Shown here: piece by piece, positions 2,867-30,979 of the stretch | Numbering within the stretch: position 1 is the stretch's first letter | How the letters are laid out: each line of letters opens with the position of its first letter | IMG/VR virus record: IMGVR_UViG_3300031998_000037 | Origin: a virus | Taxonomy: Duplodnaviria; Heunggongvirae; Uroviricota; Caudoviricetes | DNA: 35,886 bases | Strand: one strand, 5' to 3' | Notes under the pieces: model-generated | Told to the model about the DNA's origin: nothing | The model's input: the letters and a program-made list of their open reading frames with translations, nothing else | The model's database searches: none | Made by a program: the position numbers and the translations under genes

Positions 2867-3123
2867 TTCATCAGTTCCTCCAGTCGTAGCTTTGCGGCGT
2901 AAGTGCTCACGTTACTTGGACAGCCCTTATCCGATACTACAAAATAGAAAGGACATAGTGAACAATCCGCGTCGCTGCCCATAATGCAATCACAAGCTTT
3001 GCGCAAAAAACCTATAAGCTCCGCCTTGTATGCATCACGTTCTTCTTCAAGTTGTTTGACCAAAGCTTGCATCTCGCATTCCTCGTACCACTTGCCTTTA
3101 ATATACACAACACCACTTCCCAC
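2863..3123 (-). CDS. Cys-rich hypothetical protein
   Basis: ORF track, coupled to neighbours. Confidence 0.65.
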   Translation of the reverse strand: MGSGVVYIKGKWYEECEMQALVKQLEEERDAYKAELIGFLRKACDCIMGSDADCSLCPFYFVVSDKGCPSNVSTYAAKLRLEELMK

Positions 3124-4061
3124 TACATATTATTTGTCAAGAGGGTAGAATTATCCTTGACCTCAAACTCATCAAGGATATTCAGCATTTCCTCTTTGCT
3201 TATATAACCTGCATAGAATTGCGGATTAACCAAAACAAAACTACGCAGTACATCGTTCTTACTATCTACAAGGCATAGTAGAACACTTCTTTTGTCACCC
3301 TTCTTGTCCACAAAAACAAGCTTGCGCAGAATATGTTTCATAAACCGCACAACTTGTGTATCGTCAACTCCAAGTATGTGACACATATCCCTTGCTGTCA
3401 TCCTCACAATTTCGGACTTATCCGTTTCCAACGGGTTTTGGCACAGCACATTGTAGCGCAAATTTATATACGGGATTAGCCTAAACAGATAGGCGATATA
3501 CTGGTGTGACCGCACATCTATATTCTCGTACATATACCGCACCGCATGAGTGAATACTTTCATTGCCGCCTTGTTCTTTCGCGTAAGACTGCCCTTACAA
3601 AACAATGGGCTTACTCGCAGCTTGCCGTCAGGCTCTTCCACTATAATACCCGTAGCAAGCATTTCTGTCCAGAACTTATTGAACTTAGTCCTGTAAAGGC
3701 GTATCACACTTGCCACATCCTTTTTAAGCATAGGACGCTTTGGGGAAGTAGAACTGTCCTGTACAACCAAAAGATTAGTCTCGTAATCCATGTAGGTTAT
3801 AAGGTACACTATCTTGGCAAGCAAGCTGTCCGACACTTCAGGGTAGTATTCTTCGCGCACATCAAATAGCGTCCAGTAGAAGTCGCCACACAATTCTTTT
3901 TGTGTCTCCACATTTTCCCGTAGTTCCGTACTCTGTTCTACTTTGCGCTTATAGCCTTCACGTTCCTCTACGCCCATAATCGTTGTGTTGGCTGCCACAG
4001 GCACAACCTCGCCCGTTGTTCCGTCCACATAATAACCGTCATTTACCGTTCTTGTTGGCAT
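3123..4061 (-). CDS. Putative tandem winged-helix, RepL-like replication initiator / DNA-binding protein
   Basis: Start at ATG 4061 behind AAAGGAG; two HTH-like segments each ending in a RepL-like motif (LRVSPLFCKG, VLVNPQFYAG); direct repeats immediately upstream. Confidence 0.5.
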   Translation of the reverse strand: MPTRTVNDGYYVDGTTGEVVPVAANTTIMGVEEREGYKRKVEQSTELRENVETQKELCGDFYWTLFDVREEYYPEVSDSLLAKIVYLITYMDYETNLLVVQDSSTSPKRPMLKKDVASVIRLYRTKFNKFWTEMLATGIIVEEPDGKLRVSPLFCKGSLTRKNKAAMKVFTHAVRYMYENIDVRSHQYIAYLFRLIPYINLRYNVLCQNPLETDKSEIVRMTARDMCHILGVDDTQVVRFMKHILRKLVFVDKKGDKRSVLLCLVDSKNDVLRSFVLVNPQFYAGYISKEEMLNILDEFEVKDNSTLLTNNM

Positions 4062-4240: not shown

Positions 4241-4269
4241 ATTATATCACACTACATATTATTTGTCAA
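4241..4269 (-). promoter_or_regulatory. Sigma-A promoter of leftward operon containing ATGTAGTGTGAT box
   Basis: TTGACA-17-TATAAT on minus strand. Confidence 0.9.
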
Positions 4270-4825
4270 GCCCTAATTTCACACTTCGTATTATTTGCCT
4301 GTTTGTTGCCCCTTACCGAGCCTCCCCCTCATCTCTGCGCCATACCCTTGCCTGTCACCCCAGTCCCCGTTCAGGGCGACGATAGGGGAGATGGTCGAAA
4401 TCCGACACGACGGTTTTGGGGAGGATGAATAAGAGGGATGACCTTTACCTTTATTCTGTGCTGCTGATCCCTGCCCGAATGTAAACCCACCGCCCAGATA
4501 GGTTAAGCCGCAAAAGGCTATATTTCGGCATTTAAAAGATTAAATTAATTATTTACCCAAACAAATTAATTTATACAATAAACGAATTAAAAATAAATTA
4601 AAAGATGAGCAGCAACATTTCTTTTTCTTTATAATGTATTAAAAGAGTTTGCATTCGATAACAACCAAATGAGAAGTAGTGTGAAAATGCCGTGATATCC
4701 CTTATTCCCCCACATTTTCCCCACATCTCGACTTCTCCCCAAAATTGCCCACATTCCGCATGATCTCGCCCAGTCCTGCTCATTCCTGTATACTGCCGTG
4801 CATCTGGTGACGTTTTGACCATGCA

Positions 4826-5100
4826 TGAAAACAGCCCATAAACGCCGAAAAATAGGCGAAAACAAGCTAAAAACCGCCCAAAATGTAAAACGATATTTTT
4901 TTATTGTTTATCAATAATTAAATATCGAAAAACGAACGAAATGAGCAGGAGGTATGGTGTATAATTTTGGGTTGATTATACGGAATGTAATTAAACTGCT
5001 GTCAAATCAATTAACTATCTAATTTTTTTTGCCGAGTTATAGCCTTTTGTCGATTTTACATATGTTTTGAAAAATTTCTGCTGGTTTTGTTTTGATTTGG
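4826..5100. other. Helically phased A-tracts (4828-4883) and T-tracts (5045-5098); predicted bent DNA
   Basis: Tract starts spaced about 10-10.5 bp. Confidence 0.55.
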
Positions 5101-5137
5101 CATAATGCACAAAGAGCAGCAAAATGGCGATAAACGC

Positions 5138-5335
5138 CTATTTATAGCCTTTAATGTCGATTTTTTCGTCAATTATGTATTTTGCAGCATTATTGAAAAA
5201 TTCACTAACTGACAAGCCATTGAACTGGCAATAATCGTCTATTCTACGGTATAAATCCAACTTTGTGCGGATCGTACTTTTTTTGTAATTTAATTTTTCA
5301 TATTCTCTGATATATTCTTTTTGATTAAAAGACAA
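5138..5335 (-). CDS. Arc/ribbon-helix-helix DNA-binding protein
   Basis: TTG start behind AAGGTGA; SFNQKEYIREYEKLNYKKSTIR...GLSVSEFFNNAAKY resembles the Arc/RHH pattern. Confidence 0.65.
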   Translation of the reverse strand: MSFNQKEYIREYEKLNYKKSTIRTKLDLYRRIDDYCQFNGLSVSEFFNNAAKYIIDEKIDIKGYK

Positions 5336-6155
5336 CAAAATCACCTTATTTCTCGAAATATAGCCAAATATAAGCAATGTGGCAAAATGCACAAAATAGC
5401 AAAATGCACAAAAAGAGGGGGAGTTGAACATTCGCAGCGTATGCCGTATACTGGTGTCAACACGAACGACAACGGCAGCGATAACGCCGAGGGGAGAACA
5501 GGAAGCCCTGAAGCGAAGCCTACGGGCAGTATATACGGGCAGGATGTCCTGCAAGTATACGCGAAGAGAATATACACATACGGACGCGGAGGTAACTATG
5601 CGCGTATAAGGAGGCGTGCAGAATCCTCAAAACGGCAGCGAAAAAATGTCAAGATACTACAGGTATATCTTGAAAAAAGCTATATCTGCAAGTCGGTATA
5701 AGGGCGTGAGCGCACTGGTCGGAGTACTGCCATAGCACGGACACGCCTACTGCTTTTAAGCAGTGAAGCAGAACTGGATGGGGAGTCTATGACTGTCGTG
5801 AGATAGACATAACTGCGCCCATCTACAGTATGCAGCCATCTCCGTAGACAGGATATGACGAAGGGTAAAACGTGTGCATATTTTAAAGGGAATATGCTAT
5901 AGCTGGTCTTTGATCCCAGCTAAAGGACAACTAAAAAGAACTGCGCAGTTTCTGTCAGGCTTCTGCGTTGCAAATGTCATAAAAAGCACACTTTGTAGGA
6001 CATCCTGCGAAGTTCGCCATCCACTAAAGGAAGGCTTTTGCGCGGCTGTTCACTGCGCTTTTTGCCGTTCAAAAAATGCTCAAATTTTTGCATCGCTATA
6101 ATACGCGGATTTTGATATTTTGCCGCGTTAAATATTAAAAAGTTCGAGCATCCCT

Positions 6156-9779: not shown

Positions 9780-9808
9780 TTGACAAATAAAATGTAGTGT
9801 GATATAAT
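9780..9808 (+). promoter_or_regulatory. Sigma-A promoter containing ATGTAGTGTGAT box
   Basis: TTGACA-17-TATAAT. Confidence 0.9.
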
Positions 9809-9879
9809 AAAGATAGCATCACGCTACCTTGTATTTAAACGCTGGTTTTATAACAAACAGTGGGAAAGGAAAAGAGATA

Positions 9880-10182: not shown

Positions 10183-10211
10183 TTGACTTGACATTCAATT
10201 TGTGATATAAT
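10183..10211 (+). promoter_or_regulatory. Sigma-A promoter of recombinase-MazF operon
   Basis: TTGACT-17-TATAAT. Confidence 0.75.
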
Positions 10212-10289
10212 CTAAATATCACATGAGCAAGGTAATTTTTTTGTGTAATGTTTTACGCGAATTATACATAATGTAAAAGGAGGAATAAA

Positions 10290-11297
10290 ATGTTCGCTGA
10301 AAAATGTCATGTGATTGATATTTCCCAAAAGGAAATTTCAGTGGAGTACGACTTTGATAGTCTTATTCCTGAAACCGAGTGTGACGACTTGGAAGAACTC
10401 GTTGAACTTGCTACAAAGCAAAAGCAAAGTCAGGGTATGGACGTTTTACCGCTTGACCTTTATAATCAAATGCTGGAAAATTGTCTTTCTCGCTCTGATT
10501 ACAGAACGTCATTCTGGCTAACCGCTATGAGCAATTTCGGATTGAGATATTCTGATGTCGTAAACCTGCGCCGTATTGATCTTATTGATGAAAACAACAG
10601 GCTTAGAGATAGGGTTCTATTACAAGAATCAAAGACTTCAAAACAGCGTGTGGTCTTTATAAATAAAGCTGTAAAAATGGCTCTTCTTATGCATCTATGG
10701 CATAGTGACATAACGCCTACGGATTATTTAATTACCTCAAACGGCAGACGAAAAGGTTATCTTATGGAAACTTACATTGACTCGAATGGCAAGGAAAAGG
10801 CTGTCAGGATCAATGGCAAGTACGTATATAAAACTGATGATAAAGGAAACAAAATTCCTAAGCCGTTATCACGTTCAAGTTCGGAAAAAATAATGAAGCA
10901 TATTATTATAGATAATCTTGGTGTTGCAATTGCAAATGATACACGTTGCAAAAATGTACATGATTGCATAGGAAAAATCTGTACTCATTCAATCCGTAAG
11001 CTTTACGGATGGGCGATTACAGAAGCCTTTATCAATCAGTTTGATAGTGACGAAGCATACGCACACGCCGCAGCTCTAAGTTTCTTGTCTCAGGATTACG
11101 GACATAGTTCTGAAGCGATGACATTGCATTATAGTAAGGATTTTGAGAACCAGAAGAAAAAAATTGTAATGAATATGAATATCGGATTATCAGTGCTGGA
11201 AAAGTATTTCAATCAAGAATACGAAAACAGAGGGGGAGGCAATAAGTGTCCCGTAATTACAAACGATGGTCAGACGACGAAAAGGAACACGCTTTAA
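10290..11297 (+). CDS. Tyrosine recombinase (catalytic domain intact, short N-terminus)
   Basis: R (GLRYSD), K (ESKT), HxxR (HSIRK), H (YGH), Y (LHY). Confidence 0.9.
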   Translation: MFAEKCHVIDISQKEISVEYDFDSLIPETECDDLEELVELATKQKQSQGMDVLPLDLYNQMLENCLSRSDYRTSFWLTAMSNFGLRYSDVVNLRRIDLIDENNRLRDRVLLQESKTSKQRVVFINKAVKMALLMHLWHSDITPTDYLITSNGRRKGYLMETYIDSNGKEKAVRINGKYVYKTDDKGNKIPKPLSRSSSEKIMKHIIIDNLGVAIANDTRCKNVHDCIGKICTHSIRKLYGWAITEAFINQFDSDEAYAHAAALSFLSQDYGHSSEAMTLHYSKDFENQKKKIVMNMNIGLSVLEKYFNQEYENRGGGNKCPVITNDGQTTKRNTL

Positions 11298-11944
11298 AAT
11301 TGGTTGATAAGTTTGGCGTAGAAAAGACTTCGAGAAAGTTAGGTATTGCTTCGTCAACTATTCACTACTGGAAATCGCAAAGAAATAAAAAAGAAGTTAA
11401 GAAAACCTCAATGATTATACAGCCGATTGATCCCAACAAAGAATTAAAGGACAATCCGAATATTACTTTTCAATCTCAGGGTGCAGACCGTCAATTTAAA
11501 CGTGGCGAGATTTACTATGTTTCGCAACGTCCTTCTGTTGGCGTTGAAATGGTGGCTGGCAGACCAGCCGTTATTGTATCGAATGACAGATTGAATGAAA
11601 ATTTAAGTTGTGTTGAGGTCGTTTATTTGACTACTAAAACAAAATGTATCGCACCTGAACATATAAGCATAAGATCATCTGGAGTCTTAGCAACAACTAT
11701 ATGTGAACAGATTACCACTATAGATAAAAGCAGAATAAGAGAATTTGTCGGGGAATGTACCCCTATAGAAATGAAGCTGATTAATAAGGCATTGTTGTAT
11801 TCACTTGGCTTAGGGGAATATGTCAAGGAAACAATGGGCGATGATGAAATAGTTGCAAGAATTTCATCTGTAGTTGCTGAAAGAAATGCCTATCAGGAAT
11901 TAACCGAACGTTTATTAGATCGGCTTATGGAGAAAAAGAAATAA
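11246..11944 (+). CDS. HTH-PemK/MazF-family endoribonuclease fusion
   Basis: N-terminal HTH (..KLGIASSTIHYWK); RGEIYYV..GRPAVIVSND..CEQITTIDKSRI MazF fold; C-terminal coiled coil. Confidence 0.85.
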   Translation: MSRNYKRWSDDEKEHALKLVDKFGVEKTSRKLGIASSTIHYWKSQRNKKEVKKTSMIIQPIDPNKELKDNPNITFQSQGADRQFKRGEIYYVSQRPSVGVEMVAGRPAVIVSNDRLNENLSCVEVVYLTTKTKCIAPEHISIRSSGVLATTICEQITTIDKSRIREFVGECTPIEMKLINKALLYSLGLGEYVKETMGDDEIVARISSVVAERNAYQELTERLLDRLMEKKK

Positions 11945-12025
11945 GGGAGGTATGTGATATGGGCTATAACATGAGCCTACCTTAGTCTCATCACACGGCT
12001 ATCACAGTGAACACAAAACGTTCAC

Positions 12026-12054
12026 TTGACAAGTCGGAACAAATGTTCTATAAT
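12026..12054 (+). promoter_or_regulatory. Sigma-A promoter with Firmicute LexA (SOS) box
   Basis: TTGACA-17-TATAAT with GAAC-AAAT-GTTC at 12037-12048 abutting -10. Confidence 0.8.
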
Positions 12055-12092: not shown

Positions 12093-12461
12093 ATGATGAG
12101 TGCAGAAGTCTTTGCATTACTGGGTATGATAATTGACACAACTGTATCGGACGAGCCTGTATTTTTTCCATCATGGGAAAATGGTGTTCTCTTTGTTGAG
12201 TGTTACGATACAGATATCATAACAAGAATGATTTTACCGTTGTGTTATAAAAAGGTTTATCAGTTTTTGGAAAATTGTAACTGGTTCGTGGCGATCATAA
12301 AGATTTCGCAGCAACAAATTGCCGAGATAGTCTTTGAAAATGACACGGGGGAGTCATGCGTTTGTCAAATAGGGGACAACCTACTTGATAAGCTTGCTGA
12401 TCGTGGCATGGATGACACATATTTTAAATTTTGTCAGGAGATTACAGAAAAAATTATGTAG
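12093..12461 (+). CDS. Hypothetical protein under SOS-box promoter
   Basis: ORF track, GGGGTGA SD. Confidence 0.75.
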   Translation: MMSAEVFALLGMIIDTTVSDEPVFFPSWENGVLFVECYDTDIITRMILPLCYKKVYQFLENCNWFVAIIKISQQQIAEIVFENDTGESCVCQIGDNLLDKLADRGMDDTYFKFCQEITEKIM

Positions 12462-12495
12462 TGTGATTGACAAATATAATGTAGTGTGATATAAT
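12456..12495 (+). promoter_or_regulatory. Sigma-A promoter with two ATGTAGTGTGAT boxes
   Basis: TTGACA 12467-12472, TATAAT 12490-12495; boxes at 12456-12467 and 12479-12490. Confidence 0.9.
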
Positions 12496-12529
12496 GTATG
12501 CAGTCTAATGAAAGGATTGGGTGTAATTT

Positions 12530-13579
12530 ATGTTATACTTAATAGATGAGTACAGTAAACAATATCCACACAGAAGGACTTTGGAACTTCAAAGGTTCGA
12601 GAAAACTGAGTCCTTTTTGCACGAAATGACAATTGAAGAAGTAAACAAGGAGTGTGCAAATTGGGAATCGGTGAGCAATGAAACAGCCGCTAATACAAAG
12701 CGTAAGATTGCTCAATATCTTAACTGGCTTGCGGATCTGGGTTGTACTGTTAAATTTAATGCTGCGGATATAGTTTTGCCTGTAAAGGAGGAGATTGTTC
12801 CGCAAATTTATTCAACAAGTGATATTCACAAATATTATGACATTTTGGGAAAAGCACTTGAAAGACAAGCTATTTTGAACGGGAATAATGCATCTATGTT
12901 TTTCTTGAATATGGCACACGCCGCTGGCATATTGTCATTTTATGGGCTAACGGAAAGTGAATTTCTCAGTCTTAGTTTATCCGACATTCAATTTGATGGT
13001 GTCAGAGGTTATGATCTGCCATTAACAAATGACGACTTAGATGTACTAATGACCTATAAATATCAATCAAAATGTGACAATAACCATACTTTAAAAGGCA
13101 CTAAATATTTTAGAAGTGCAAGTGAAATAAAGGTTGTTAATGCAAGTTATATCAATCGTCCATTAACACTTATAGATGTTGAGGAAGAGTTTCAGTATTT
13201 AAAAACTATTCTCAGAACCTCTTATCTTAATCTTTGTGGTAAATTTAATCGGGCGTACCATGAAGAAAAGGCTACTGGGCAAATGATAGTTTGCAGTTCG
13301 GTAACACCTCAGTGGTTCTTGGACATTTTTCAAGTAAGTAAGAACATGATTGCAAGGCGTAAGAAAGAGTATGTTGCTTATCGCAATCAGCGCAATAAAT
13401 ATGAGTCTGAAAATCCCTCCGCTAACGTTGCACCTGTGTTGTCTAAGAATGCTATTCTAAACAAGATTTCGCTTATTCAAGACAACATTGAAAAACTAAA
13501 CCAAGAGTCGCAAGAACAAATCAATAAGTTTAATCAAGAAGTAGAAGAACTTCGTAGTCAGCTACAGCAGTATAACTGA
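12530..13579 (+). CDS. Tyrosine-recombinase-fold protein with degenerate active site; putative repressor (MrpR/YopR-like)
   Basis: Core-binding-like N-terminus (TAANTKRKIAQYLNWL); box I reads FYGLTESEFLSLSLSDI (Arg replaced by Thr); no HxxR. Confidence 0.6.
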   Translation: MLYLIDEYSKQYPHRRTLELQRFEKTESFLHEMTIEEVNKECANWESVSNETAANTKRKIAQYLNWLADLGCTVKFNAADIVLPVKEEIVPQIYSTSDIHKYYDILGKALERQAILNGNNASMFFLNMAHAAGILSFYGLTESEFLSLSLSDIQFDGVRGYDLPLTNDDLDVLMTYKYQSKCDNNHTLKGTKYFRSASEIKVVNASYINRPLTLIDVEEEFQYLKTILRTSYLNLCGKFNRAYHEEKATGQMIVCSSVTPQWFLDIFQVSKNMIARRKKEYVAYRNQRNKYESENPSANVAPVLSKNAILNKISLIQDNIEKLNQESQEQINKFNQEVEELRSQLQQYN

Positions 13580-14096: not shown

Positions 14097-14942
14097 ATGC
14101 CTTCAAAAAAAGAATTGATAGTAACTACAAATGATGGTGATATGCGAATTGTTGTAATGGATATCACTCCGCGAAAAGCAAGCGAATTGCTGGATAAAAA
14201 CACAAGCAATCGTAACCTGAGACAAGGCAGAGTTAGTATGTACGCATCTGAGATGAAAAATGGGAACTGGAAATCTAATGGTGTTCCAATAATCATTGGT
14301 GATGATGGCATTCTAAAAGATGGGCAGCATAGATTATGTGCTTGCGTAAAAGCAAATGCCACTATGAAAAATGCTGTAGTAATCTACTTGCCCAAAGCTC
14401 AAACAAATTGTTACGATATCGGAGCAACAAGAACTGCTGTAGATGTTGCAAAGTTTATGGGAATTGACGACCATCCATATTTAAGATCAAACGCTATATT
14501 TGCTTCTGTTAATCTTGCAATCACTGGAAGATCAGACGGTTATCGTTCTTACTCTAAAATCGGTCTTGTTAAAGAGATACAGAAACATCCAGAAGCTTGC
14601 GAATTTATATATTATAAGATACTATCAAATGGCGCAGCACAAAATCTAAAATTCCGCAAATCTGGATTTATGGCTGCAATATTCAATGCTTTTCTCGTAG
14701 GTTATGATAGAGAAAAGCTGGAGAGATTTTGTACTGTTCTTATTCATGGCATAGTAAGAGATGAAGCCGAAATTCCAATCATCAAGCTTAGGGATCAGAT
14801 TTTGAATATAAGTGCGCAGTCAAGAAGGGATAAGCTTGTTCTGTATTTCCAGACGCAAGCTGTACTTAAAGCCTACGAAATGAACAAAACAACTGTTGAT
14901 TTAAAAAAGGCAGATAAAGAATATTATTCCTATCCGAAATAA
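14097..14942 (+). CDS. ParB-like / DGQHR-motif protein
   Basis: ITP..A..LL..N..NR.L...V..YA..M..G.W....PII....G.LKDGQHRL. Confidence 0.75.
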   Translation: MPSKKELIVTTNDGDMRIVVMDITPRKASELLDKNTSNRNLRQGRVSMYASEMKNGNWKSNGVPIIIGDDGILKDGQHRLCACVKANATMKNAVVIYLPKAQTNCYDIGATRTAVDVAKFMGIDDHPYLRSNAIFASVNLAITGRSDGYRSYSKIGLVKEIQKHPEACEFIYYKILSNGAAQNLKFRKSGFMAAIFNAFLVGYDREKLERFCTVLIHGIVRDEAEIPIIKLRDQILNISAQSRRDKLVLYFQTQAVLKAYEMNKTTVDLKKADKEYYSYPK

Positions 14943-15155: not shown

Positions 15156-15171
15156 GGAAAGGTTGATAATA

Positions 15172-28748: not shown

Positions 28749-28836
28749 TTGACAAATAATATGTAGTGTGATATAATAAGTACATAATCCCAATGTGGAT
28801 AAAATTTTAGTCTTAGCAAATAATATGTAGTGTGAT
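28749..28836 (+). promoter_or_regulatory. Promoter of recombination/replication operon with two 20-bp CAAATAATATGTAGTGTGAT boxes
   Basis: TTGACA-17-TATAAT at 28749-28777; boxes at 28753-28772 and 28817-28836. Confidence 0.9.
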
Positions 28837-28863
28837 TTAGAAATTTGTATACTTCCTTTCTCA

Positions 28864-30263: not shown

Positions 30264-30979
30264 TGGATTTAACAAAAAAGAAATGGTCTTTTAGTTCCGT
30301 CAAACTATTTGAGCAATGCCCATATGCATTCTATCTTAAATATGTCAAAGATAAAGTCGAAGAAGAAAATGCCTTCGCACAGCATGGCAAGTTTGCCCAT
30401 AAATTATTAGAACGCTGTCTAAAAGGTGAACTTACAGCTTTTGAATTGGCGGATGTATATGAGAGCGAATATTACAACAATGTTACTAAACGTTTCCCAT
30501 ACGCAAATATAGCAAAGTCTTTCTATGACAAGACGCTTCAGTATTTCTTAGAATACGATGGCTTTATAGGGGAAGTTGTCAGTGTTGAAGAAGAATTACA
30601 AACTAAATTTGGGGATTATGATTTTATAGGTTACGCAGATTTAATTATGCGTGATGATAAGGGGATATATATTGTAGATCATAAATCTCATGCCGCCTTT
30701 AAGAGTAAGAAAGAACGTGAAGAATATTATAGACAGCTTTATCTTTATGCTGAATGTATAAAGCGTAAGTATGGTGAGTACCCATATAAGCTTGTTTTTA
30801 ATATGTTCCGTATTCCTAAATTAGAGGTGGAGCTATTTGCACCCTCGCAAATAATACGTAGTGGGATATGGCTTAATGATAGTGTAACAAACATCTTGCA
30901 TACTACAAACTGGGAGTGCAAGGTTGACAACTGGTATTGCTCAAATCTTTGCGGAATGGATTGTGTTTTCAGGGGGTGA
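30263..30979 (+). CDS. PD-(D/E)XK nuclease (RecB/Cas4-like)
   Basis: WSFS...CPY...GYAD...IVDHKS...QL.LY; C-terminal CxxxC. Confidence 0.85.
   Translation: MDLTKKKWSFSSVKLFEQCPYAFYLKYVKDKVEEENAFAQHGKFAHKLLERCLKGELTAFELADVYESEYYNNVTKRFPYANIAKSFYDKTLQYFLEYDGFIGEVVSVEEELQTKFGDYDFIGYADLIMRDDKGIYIVDHKSHAAFKSKKEREEYYRQLYLYAECIKRKYGEYPYKLVFNMFRIPKLEVELFAPSQIIRSGIWLNDSVTNILHTTNWECKVDNWYCSNLCGMDCVFRG

Follow-up and report, generated by a model that had tools for sequence, protein, structure and literature searches.

A tyrosine-recombinase-fold protein and a 20-bp promoter-spacer box: a candidate MrpR/SroF-type repressor circuit in a metagenomic Firmicute phage

What does a protein with a tyrosine-recombinase fold do when the catalytic residues of that fold are missing, and is it the protein that reads an asymmetric box repeated in promoters of its phage, its own included? 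These questions are raised by P0001, which is encoded in a 35,886-nucleotide stretch of phage DNA (the window; bases 14168-50053 of the 58,345-bp IMG/VR virus record IMGVR_UViG_3300031998_000037; coordinates are those of the window unless stated otherwise). The phage comes from a gut or rumen metagenome and has a non-Bacillus Firmicute as its host, for which indirect evidence points to Clostridia; the CheckV completeness of the record is about 52%. An earlier interpretation made from the letters alone (the sequence-only reading) had proposed that P0001 is a catalytically dead relative of the SPbeta repressor MrpR (YopR), acting on a 12-bp operator. Here, the structural and family searches show that P0001 is a catalytically inactive tyrosine-recombinase-fold protein and a divergent relative of MrpR/YopR/SroF. 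We consider it probable (about 60%) that P0001 reads CAAATAATATGTAGTGTGAT as its operator.

A tyrosine-recombinase fold without its active site

12530-13579, plus strand: P0001, 349 amino acids, tyrosine-recombinase fold followed by a C-terminal helix/coiled coil; candidate master repressor.

The AlphaFold2 model of P0001, which like the residue counts below is based on an alignment of 45 family sequences, has a predicted local distance difference test (pLDDT) score of 88.9. It consists of an N-terminal helical core-binding domain (residues about 1-90) and an alpha/beta domain resembling the catalytic (CAT) domain of recombinases (about 91 to 293-295), followed by a low-confidence linker (295-303) and a long C-terminal helix/coiled coil (306-348), which suggests that the protein, as modelled, may oligomerize. 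In a Foldseek search of the PDB, the first seven places were taken by chains of YopR (8bj6, 8bpz), SroF (9rd5, 9rgl) and MrpR (8a0a) with E values of 4e-5 to 5e-3, followed by Tn1549 Int, lambda Int, XerA and Cre; the top five entries of VIA-align were again YopR/MrpR/SroF. The two-domain tyrosine-recombinase fold of P0001 is thus nearest to the solved MrpR/YopR/SroF structures, as the sequence-only reading had supposed, at an identity of 14-18% in the structural alignments. The recombinase-like architecture that had been claimed for P0001 is therefore visible to structure prediction and structure search, but it is invisible to Pfam, where P0001 matched nothing at E values up to 10, PF00589 included. 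Among the 45 homologues, 32 matched PF22822 (MrpR_N_CB) weakly (E <=1; best E 4e-5), and PF22823 (MrpR_C_cat) was not among the families listed for them; the ESM Atlas clusters closest to P0001 carry both MrpR_N_CB and MrpR_C_cat. Neither the window's own integrase nor int2, a recombinase gene product described below, gave a significant hhalign match to the P0001 family. The family is small: at 90% identity it forms 63 clusters, and a set of 1.8 billion proteins contains 51 representatives of it. Nearly all of its members are unannotated metagenomic proteins.

The active site has been lost throughout the family. The motif FYGLTESE (residues 137-144) is the counterpart of the G-L-R of recombinase box I, the position of the first catalytic Arg (R-I) being set by this motif (YGLT versus GLR) in a low-confidence alignment and not by a residue-level structural superposition. 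At that position, residue 141, the 45 members carry Thr (25), Ser (19) or Asp (1) and never Arg or Lys. HxxR is absent from all of them, and the CAT-like domain has no conserved His, the sole invariant His of the family being H31 in the core-binding domain. The replaced Arg and missing HxxR pointed out from the P0001 sequence thus hold across the family, and P0001 lacks the R-K-H-R-H/W-Y catalytic set of tyrosine recombinases (PF00589). Other residues have been kept: Tyr284, Trp262, Arg285 and Arg288 vary little or not at all, and 33/45 members have Arg241.

A different setting was seen in a 226-kb JGI contig (L007, 10001-11029), in which a homologue with 38% identity is surrounded by ordinary bacterial genes and accompanied by neither int2, MazF nor an acidic partner. 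Its promoter is perfect, with ATAAAGCAA repeated in the spacer and past the -10, and it may be a domesticated or remnant copy.

The 20-bp box, its sites and its relatives

The starting point of the proposed circuit was an exact 12-mer, ATGTAGTGTGAT, said to occur six times in the window. All six coordinates were recovered (4246 on the minus strand; 9792, 12456, 12479, 28761 and 28825 on the plus strand), and the 58,345-bp record holds no further exact copy. This count was reached by none of 100 dinucleotide-preserving shuffles; at <=2 mismatches there are 17 matches, compared with a shuffle mean of 4.6 and a maximum of 9. The 12-mer proved to be the core of the asymmetric 20-bp box CAAATAATATGTAGTGTGAT, for which the genome-wide scan that had been suggested gave ten sites at <=3 mismatches in the 58-kb record: 3117, 4246 and 4278 on the minus strand, 9784, 12448, 12471, 28753, 28817 and 30848 on the plus strand, and 37550, which is outside the window but given on its scale. 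The sites in the window, with the promoter of P0001 and two lesser copies, are as follows.

3117-3136, minus strand: box with 2 mismatches (GTGGGA variant) and no promoter, at the junction of a 336-amino-acid gene and the next gene.
4246-4265, minus strand: box, exact 20-mer, in the spacer of the leftward promoter 4269-4241.
4278-4297, minus strand: degenerate box, 3 mismatches, 32 bp upstream of the 4246 box.
4666-4685, plus strand: weak, uncertain box-like copy, 4 mismatches, in a large non-coding region.
9784-9803, plus strand: box in the spacer of promoter 9780-9808, upstream of orf90, int2 and the HTH-MazF gene.
9818-9837, minus strand: inverted partial box, directly downstream of the -10 of promoter 9780.
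12448-12467, plus strand: second P0001 box, 23 bp upstream of the first and abutting the -35; its 12-mer (12456-12467) is exact.
12467-12495, plus strand: P0001's own promoter, a perfect TTGACA-17-TATAAT with an extended -10.
12471-12490, plus strand: box in the spacer of the P0001 promoter, 2 mismatches; its 12-mer (12479-12490) is exact.
28753-28772, plus strand: exact box in the spacer of promoter 28749-28777.
28817-28836, plus strand: exact box 64 bp downstream, in a promoter duplicate with decayed -35 and -10 (TTAGCA/TTTAGA).
30848-30867, plus strand: promoter-less intragenic box, 2 mismatches, 76 bp 5' of the primase-helicase start.

Four boxes fill the 17-bp spacer of promoters that match TTGACA-N17-TATAAT at 12/12 positions (4269 on the minus strand, 9780, 12467 and 28749). 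Each of them begins with the two final bases of the -35 and ends with the initial base of the -10. The 12-mers had been described as lying in or beside perfect promoters, and this is accurate: four are in spacers, the one at 12456 abuts a -35 and the one at 28825 is 64 bp downstream of that at 28761, in the decayed duplicate. Two partial copies that had been placed at 3121 and 4676 are real, but their positions were offset, the actual ones being 3117-3128 (minus) and 4674-4685 (plus). Half of the ten sites (3117, 4278, 28817, 30848 and 37550) have no usable -35 or -10. Where boxes are paired, the spacings are 23, 32 and 64 bp for direct pairs and 34 bp for the inverted pair.

The genes behind these promoters include P0001 itself and a replication operon, in agreement with the proposal that the box governs both: promoter 28749 drives the genes for the Sak single-strand annealing protein, a single-stranded DNA-binding protein (SSB), a PD-(D/E)XK nuclease (exonuclease), the primase-helicase and the DNA polymerase. 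The leftward promoter drives the 336-amino-acid gene and about 11 small genes; the label 'Rep' that this gene had received is unsupported, as its product matches only phrog_9501, a family of unknown function. Such a target set is that expected of a prophage master repressor with negative autoregulation.

That the box behaves as an operator and not as a promoter consensus is supported by its promoter-less copies, by its sharp borders (the information content falls to background right outside the 20 bp on both sides) and by its change in related phages, and the same distinction made by the sequence-only reading has held up. Strong promoters without the box have unrelated spacers (8788, 10183, 12026, 28226 and, on the minus strand, 28515), including the three that had been named as box-free (8788, 12026 and 28226). 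An exact 17-mer comprising box and -10 has four matches in IMG/VR, in unrelated contexts; these are uninformative because no -35 or cassette gene lies nearby.

Homologous loci, labelled L001 onwards, allowed the box to be followed with the gene; 11 were compared for promoters and neighbouring genes. A consensus promoter stands directly upstream of the orthologue in 11/11, down to 34% identity, ten of them matching at 12/12 positions and L013 at 11/12 (TTGACT as its -35). The two closest orthologues, in L001 (70% identical to P0001) and L003 (61%), retain ATGTAGTGTGAT together with the two-box arrangement at the orthologue's promoter; in L003, the upstream box translates as Cys-Val-Val-stop. 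The 9780-type promoter of both loci also keeps its inverted pair, with the arms changed in concert (AGGTAGTGTGAT/ATCACACTACCT in L001). The next two carry boxes of their own: L005 (49%) has AGATACTGTGAT in the orthologue promoter and AGATAATGTGGT at a second site, and L006 (45%) has ATATGATGTGAT three times. In L005 and L006, int2 is 71 and 69% identical, respectively, and p122, the small gene upstream of P0001, 48 and 34%. This faster divergence of P0001 and p122 than of int2 would be the pattern expected of immunity determinants. The L001 orthologue, which has the same box, is a mosaic, with residues 1-90 and 211-270 being 80-100% identical and residues 136-210 about 47-60%.

A tRNA-Gln gene always lies 3' of the P0001 gene (at 13627 in the window). 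Several relatives have a copy of their own box just past the orthologue stop and/or overlapping the 5' end of this tRNA gene (L001 at 11052 and 11114, L003 at 11040 and 11100, L005 at 3493, L006 at 3847), and this copy varies with the promoter box of that phage. From the window such copies have been lost; a poly-T precedes the tRNA.

The SOS link and the reader of the box

12026-12054, plus strand: p122 promoter, perfect, with a Firmicute LexA (Cheo) box GGAACAAATGTTCT at 12036-12049 in its spacer.
12093-12461, plus strand: p122, 122 amino acids, acidic (isoelectric point, pI, 4.1), of no known family or fold; candidate SOS-induced antirepressor.

The gene directly upstream of P0001 would link the locus to DNA damage. 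At the p122 promoter, GAAC-N4-GTTC is invariant in L001, L003, L005, L006, L009, L011, L013 and L014, while the flanking spacer bases vary; with the window, this makes nine distinct loci, down to 34% orthologue identity, and the motif is otherwise almost absent from each 20-kb locus. A family-profile search of IMG/VR gave six loci, all at 34-38% identity, in which the synteny with the LexA box is again clear. The small proteins encoded upstream of the P0001 homologues are homologous to one another and all acidic (pI 4.05-4.40), so that a small acidic protein under a LexA box adjoins the candidate repressor gene. The LexA box argues for a temperate, SOS-inducible lifestyle, as far as sequence can indicate one. 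The box at 12448 overlaps the p122 stop codon (TAG, within 12456-12461), and no terminator was seen between p122 and P0001; therefore, SOS-induced transcripts may run into the repressor gene.

Further repeats surround this promoter. An inverted repeat, GTGAAC-N7-GTTCAC (12007-12025), abuts its -35; L001 and L003 retain it, and in L005 and L006 another sequence stands in its place. Farther upstream, ATCACAC words (the reverse of the box core) occur in the window and in L001, L003, L005 and L006. Two other LexA-like boxes, AGAACGTATGTTCG and AGAACAGATGTTCT, are found before the window, at positions 4061 and 10394 of the genome.

The p122 monomer model has a pLDDT of 90.7. A predicted complex of P0001(1-300) with p122 scored 0.27, below the 0.32 mark, and counts neither for nor against binding. 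Because structure searches with the p122 model showed no similarity to Sar, the antirepressor of SroF, or to any other solved structure, the role of p122 can be put forward only as a hypothesis: that p122 is an antirepressor of P0001, with a fold that would differ from that of Sar, seems to us to fall slightly short of an even chance.

The mechanism that we propose runs as follows. P0001 would recognize the asymmetric box CAAATAATATGTAGTGTGAT and, when bound in the four consensus sigma-A promoters, shut out RNA polymerase; an occupant of the box would block the polymerase because the box spans the region from the end of the -35 to the first base of the -10. The units silenced in this way would be the leftward early operon, the int2/HTH-MazF operon, the lytic recombination/replication operon and the P0001 gene, where the two boxes would provide negative autoregulation. 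The promoter-less boxes (3117, 4278, 28817, 30848 and the one past the window) would serve as auxiliary sites. The variable box pairs would fit a repressor in which the coiled coil 306-348, set behind a flexible linker, holds two DNA-reading units together. More tentatively, DNA damage would remove LexA from its box in promoter 12026, p122 would be made and P0001 would be inactivated, as SroF is by Sar.

Other proteins of the cassette have to be considered as readers of the box.

10290-11297, plus strand: int2, 335-amino-acid tyrosine recombinase in which GLR, HSIR, GHS and the LHY tyrosine are visible; rival binder.
11246-11944, plus strand: HTH-MazF/PemK fusion, 232 amino acids, with an N-terminal helix-turn-helix (HTH); rival binder.
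14097-14942, plus strand: P0115, 281 amino acids, with a DGQHR (ParB/DndB-type) motif; rival binder.

The most serious rival, unlikely as we think it, is that the box is a real operator bound by another protein, P0001 being accessory or unrelated; int2, P0115, HTH-MazF, a small Arc/ribbon-helix-helix (RHH)-like ORF (open reading frame) near 5138-5340 and a host factor are the candidates. int2 accompanies P0001 homologues in 10/11 loci, HTH-MazF carries its own HTH and the inverted orientation of the two boxes at promoter 9780 would suit a dimeric HTH protein. The DGQHR motif of P0115 can be aligned, though weakly, with that of SPbeta YopQ (SroE); SroE is a second SPbeta master repressor, and SPbeta repression reportedly requires SroD, SroE and SroF jointly. 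However, P0115, although present in L003 and L009, is broken up into two ORFs in L001 and has no counterpart within 10 kb in most of the remaining loci, including L005 and L006, and the boxes are retained in L001, L005 and L006; MazF is likewise absent from six loci (L008 to L013). int2 still shares 69-71% identity with its counterparts in L005 and L006, where the box differs, and it has a conserved promoter of its own with a separate palindrome (10183). Asymmetric boxes that occur singly, as direct or as inverted pairs and at variable spacing fit a SroF-type reader better than a fixed dimeric HTH protein, and the gene directly behind the two-box promoter is that of P0001.

A second possibility, which we regard as improbable, is that the 20-mer has no dedicated binder and is the body of one strong promoter that was copied and homogenized, the promoter-less copies being decaying duplicates. 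Copying has occurred, as 28803-28839 clearly repeats the 28739 promoter in tandem, with 86% identity over 37 nt and a perfect spacer; TGTGA-TATAAT is a general promoter consensus in the phage, and the 5' octamer CAAATAAT is uniform in this genome, though variable in L003. Yet five copies have lost their -35 and -10 hexamers and spared the spacer, the reverse of neutral promoter decay, and equally strong promoters carry unrelated spacers. The concerted change of both arms of the retained 9818 pair in L001 and L003, and the distinct box that each relative has at several sites, also speak against mere copying. Least credible of all, to the point that we give it very little weight, is that the active site of P0001 is rearranged but functional, the protein being a site-specific recombinase for which the boxes serve in recombination or binding. 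The fold, the (nearly) invariant Tyr284, Trp262, Arg285 and Arg288, the frequent Arg241 and the constant tRNA-Gln 3' of the gene would suit such an enzyme, but R-I is never Arg or Lys, HxxR and a conserved CAT-like His are missing, and the nearest structures are those of the non-recombining MrpR/SroF (PMC10516654). Moreover, the sites are asymmetric and inside promoters, with no inverted core-site pair around a crossover region, and two recognizable recombinases are encoded nearby, namely int2 and a XerC-like gene at 15163 (Phage_integrase match, E 1e-26).

Several observations weigh against P0001 as the reader of the box. The other candidate DNA binders that travel with its gene (int2, HTH-MazF and the DGQHR protein) are among them: because these cassette proteins could bind the box, binding by P0001 is something that we infer. 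With P0001 itself as query, no significant match came from Pfam, PHROG, NCBIfam or the PDB sequences, and its family gave no significant hhalign alignment with SPbeta YopR. With a pI of 5.8 (family median 6.5), the protein lacks a basic character, unusually for one that would wrap DNA. The 3' end of the box (TGTGA-T) is shared with the extended -10 and present in box-less promoters; only about 14 of the 20 positions are specific, because the last bases double as the Gram-positive extended -10, TRTG-n-TATAAT. The repeated promoter word of the distant L008, AAATTAGTGT, is absent from the orthologue's own promoter, and among the IMG/VR relatives at 34-38% identity no repeated box could be defined by simple word counts. 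An HTH_3 family search of the 58-kb record found no classical XRE/CI-type repressor, which does not exclude one beyond it; since the record is only about half complete, a second repressor could sit there. Finally, the p122 model gave no Sar/YopT match and nothing solved that is similar in a Foldseek PDB and a wide VIA search, although the lack of a match does not speak conclusively against that fold.

Two further regions of the window carry features of their own. Upstream of int2 (10183-10240), TTGACT-N17-TATAAT represents a third class of consensus promoter. A perfect palindrome, TGTGATAT-N7-ATATCACA, flanks it. Promoters of this type are found in L003 (7661), L005 (84) and L006 (475), those of L005 and L006 with a different palindrome (TGTAAC...GTTAC). 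The palindrome has the appearance of an operator in its own right, for a dimeric protein that regulates the int2-MazF operon and might be HTH-MazF itself. Between the divergent operons, a 1.6-kb, mostly non-coding stretch (4280-5900) contains short repeated words, for example CACAAAATAGCAAAATGCACAAAA near 5380, and the minus-strand Arc/RHH-like small ORF, which is the C-terminal part of 5138-5554 (phrog_582, E 5e-4). This stretch may be an origin, a partition region or a second regulator.

Comparison with the SPbeta repressor and other recombinase-fold proteins

SroF/MrpR/YopR is the integrase-fold master repressor of SPbeta and phi3T, acting on SPBRE or 26-bp boxes (PDB 8A0A, 8BJ6, 8BPZ, 9RD5). 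MrpR has Val/Ser at R-I and Asn at the H-II position, retains the Tyr and does not recombine (PMC10516654, Table 3). P0001 is similar in having a small residue in place of the box-I Arg and in retaining the C-terminal Tyr, whereas lambda Int, Cre, XerA/XerH and Tn1549 Int differ from its family, which lacks both the box-I Arg and HxxR. As a monomer, SroF reads 24 bp of a 26-bp non-palindromic box that recurs at many sites (bioRxiv 10.1101/2025.11.27.690993), and the box described here is likewise asymmetric, about 20 bp long and dispersed over promoter regions in either orientation. The layout of the locus is also comparable. A recombinase-like gene lies two genes upstream of the repressor gene (yopP in SPbeta, int2 here; the YopP/SroD position), and BLASTP found no similarity between int2 and YopP; P0115 is possibly a ParB-fold partner in the manner of YopQ/SroE; and a small acidic LexA-controlled gene adjoins the repressor gene, as it does that of SroF.

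Nevertheless, there are clear differences. SroF and MrpR are monomers of about 320 amino acids, whereas P0001 has the extra C-terminal coiled coil, and the boxes here sit exactly in the -35/-10 spacer of consensus promoters. Neither arbitrium genes nor the six-gene sro operon of SPbeta/phi3T were seen here, and the host is not a Bacillus. The putative antirepressors can be compared in the same way. Sar (phi3T_99) and YopT, the products of small acidic LexA-controlled neighbours of sroF, are DNA-mimic antirepressors of SroF (PDB 9RGL, 2DLB; bioRxiv 10.1101/2025.11.27.690993). p122 resembles them in being small and strongly acidic, in having a LexA-box promoter and in diverging along with its repressor neighbour. 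Unlike Sar, which has a long beta-1 strand (Sar/YopT form an intertwined beta-sheet dimer), p122 is predicted to begin with a helix, and its gene is directly upstream of that of the repressor, whereas sar is one ORF downstream.

The P0001 system is, in our assessment, a divergent MrpR/SroF variant with an unusually complete and readable circuit: the box lies inside four consensus promoters, the predicted targets include lytic replication genes and the repressor's own gene, and the acidic neighbour, apparently under SOS control, is kept down to 34% identity. To our knowledge, control by an integrase-fold repressor is otherwise known, and tested, only in SPbeta-type phages of Bacillus, where such repressors have been called unique among those of phages; as a kind, the system is already known, because Pfam includes MrpR families that reach other Bacillota. 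It is a speculative extension, rather less likely than the antirepressor role of p122, that SroF-Sar logic exists outside the arbitrium phages as a compact two-gene immunity switch of gut or rumen Firmicute phages or phage-plasmids, with a coiled-coil-dimerized repressor that reads pairs of spacer boxes and an antirepressor whose fold is unrelated to Sar. If true, the switch would be an old, modular alternative to CI/LexA-type cleavable repressors for which the decoy was recruited independently. The locus makes it testable whether Firmicute phages use this type of repressor generally, in what way 20 bp are read by a recombinase fold and whether decoys have been recruited repeatedly, and it provides an annotation rule for a gene family left 'hypothetical' in the databases.

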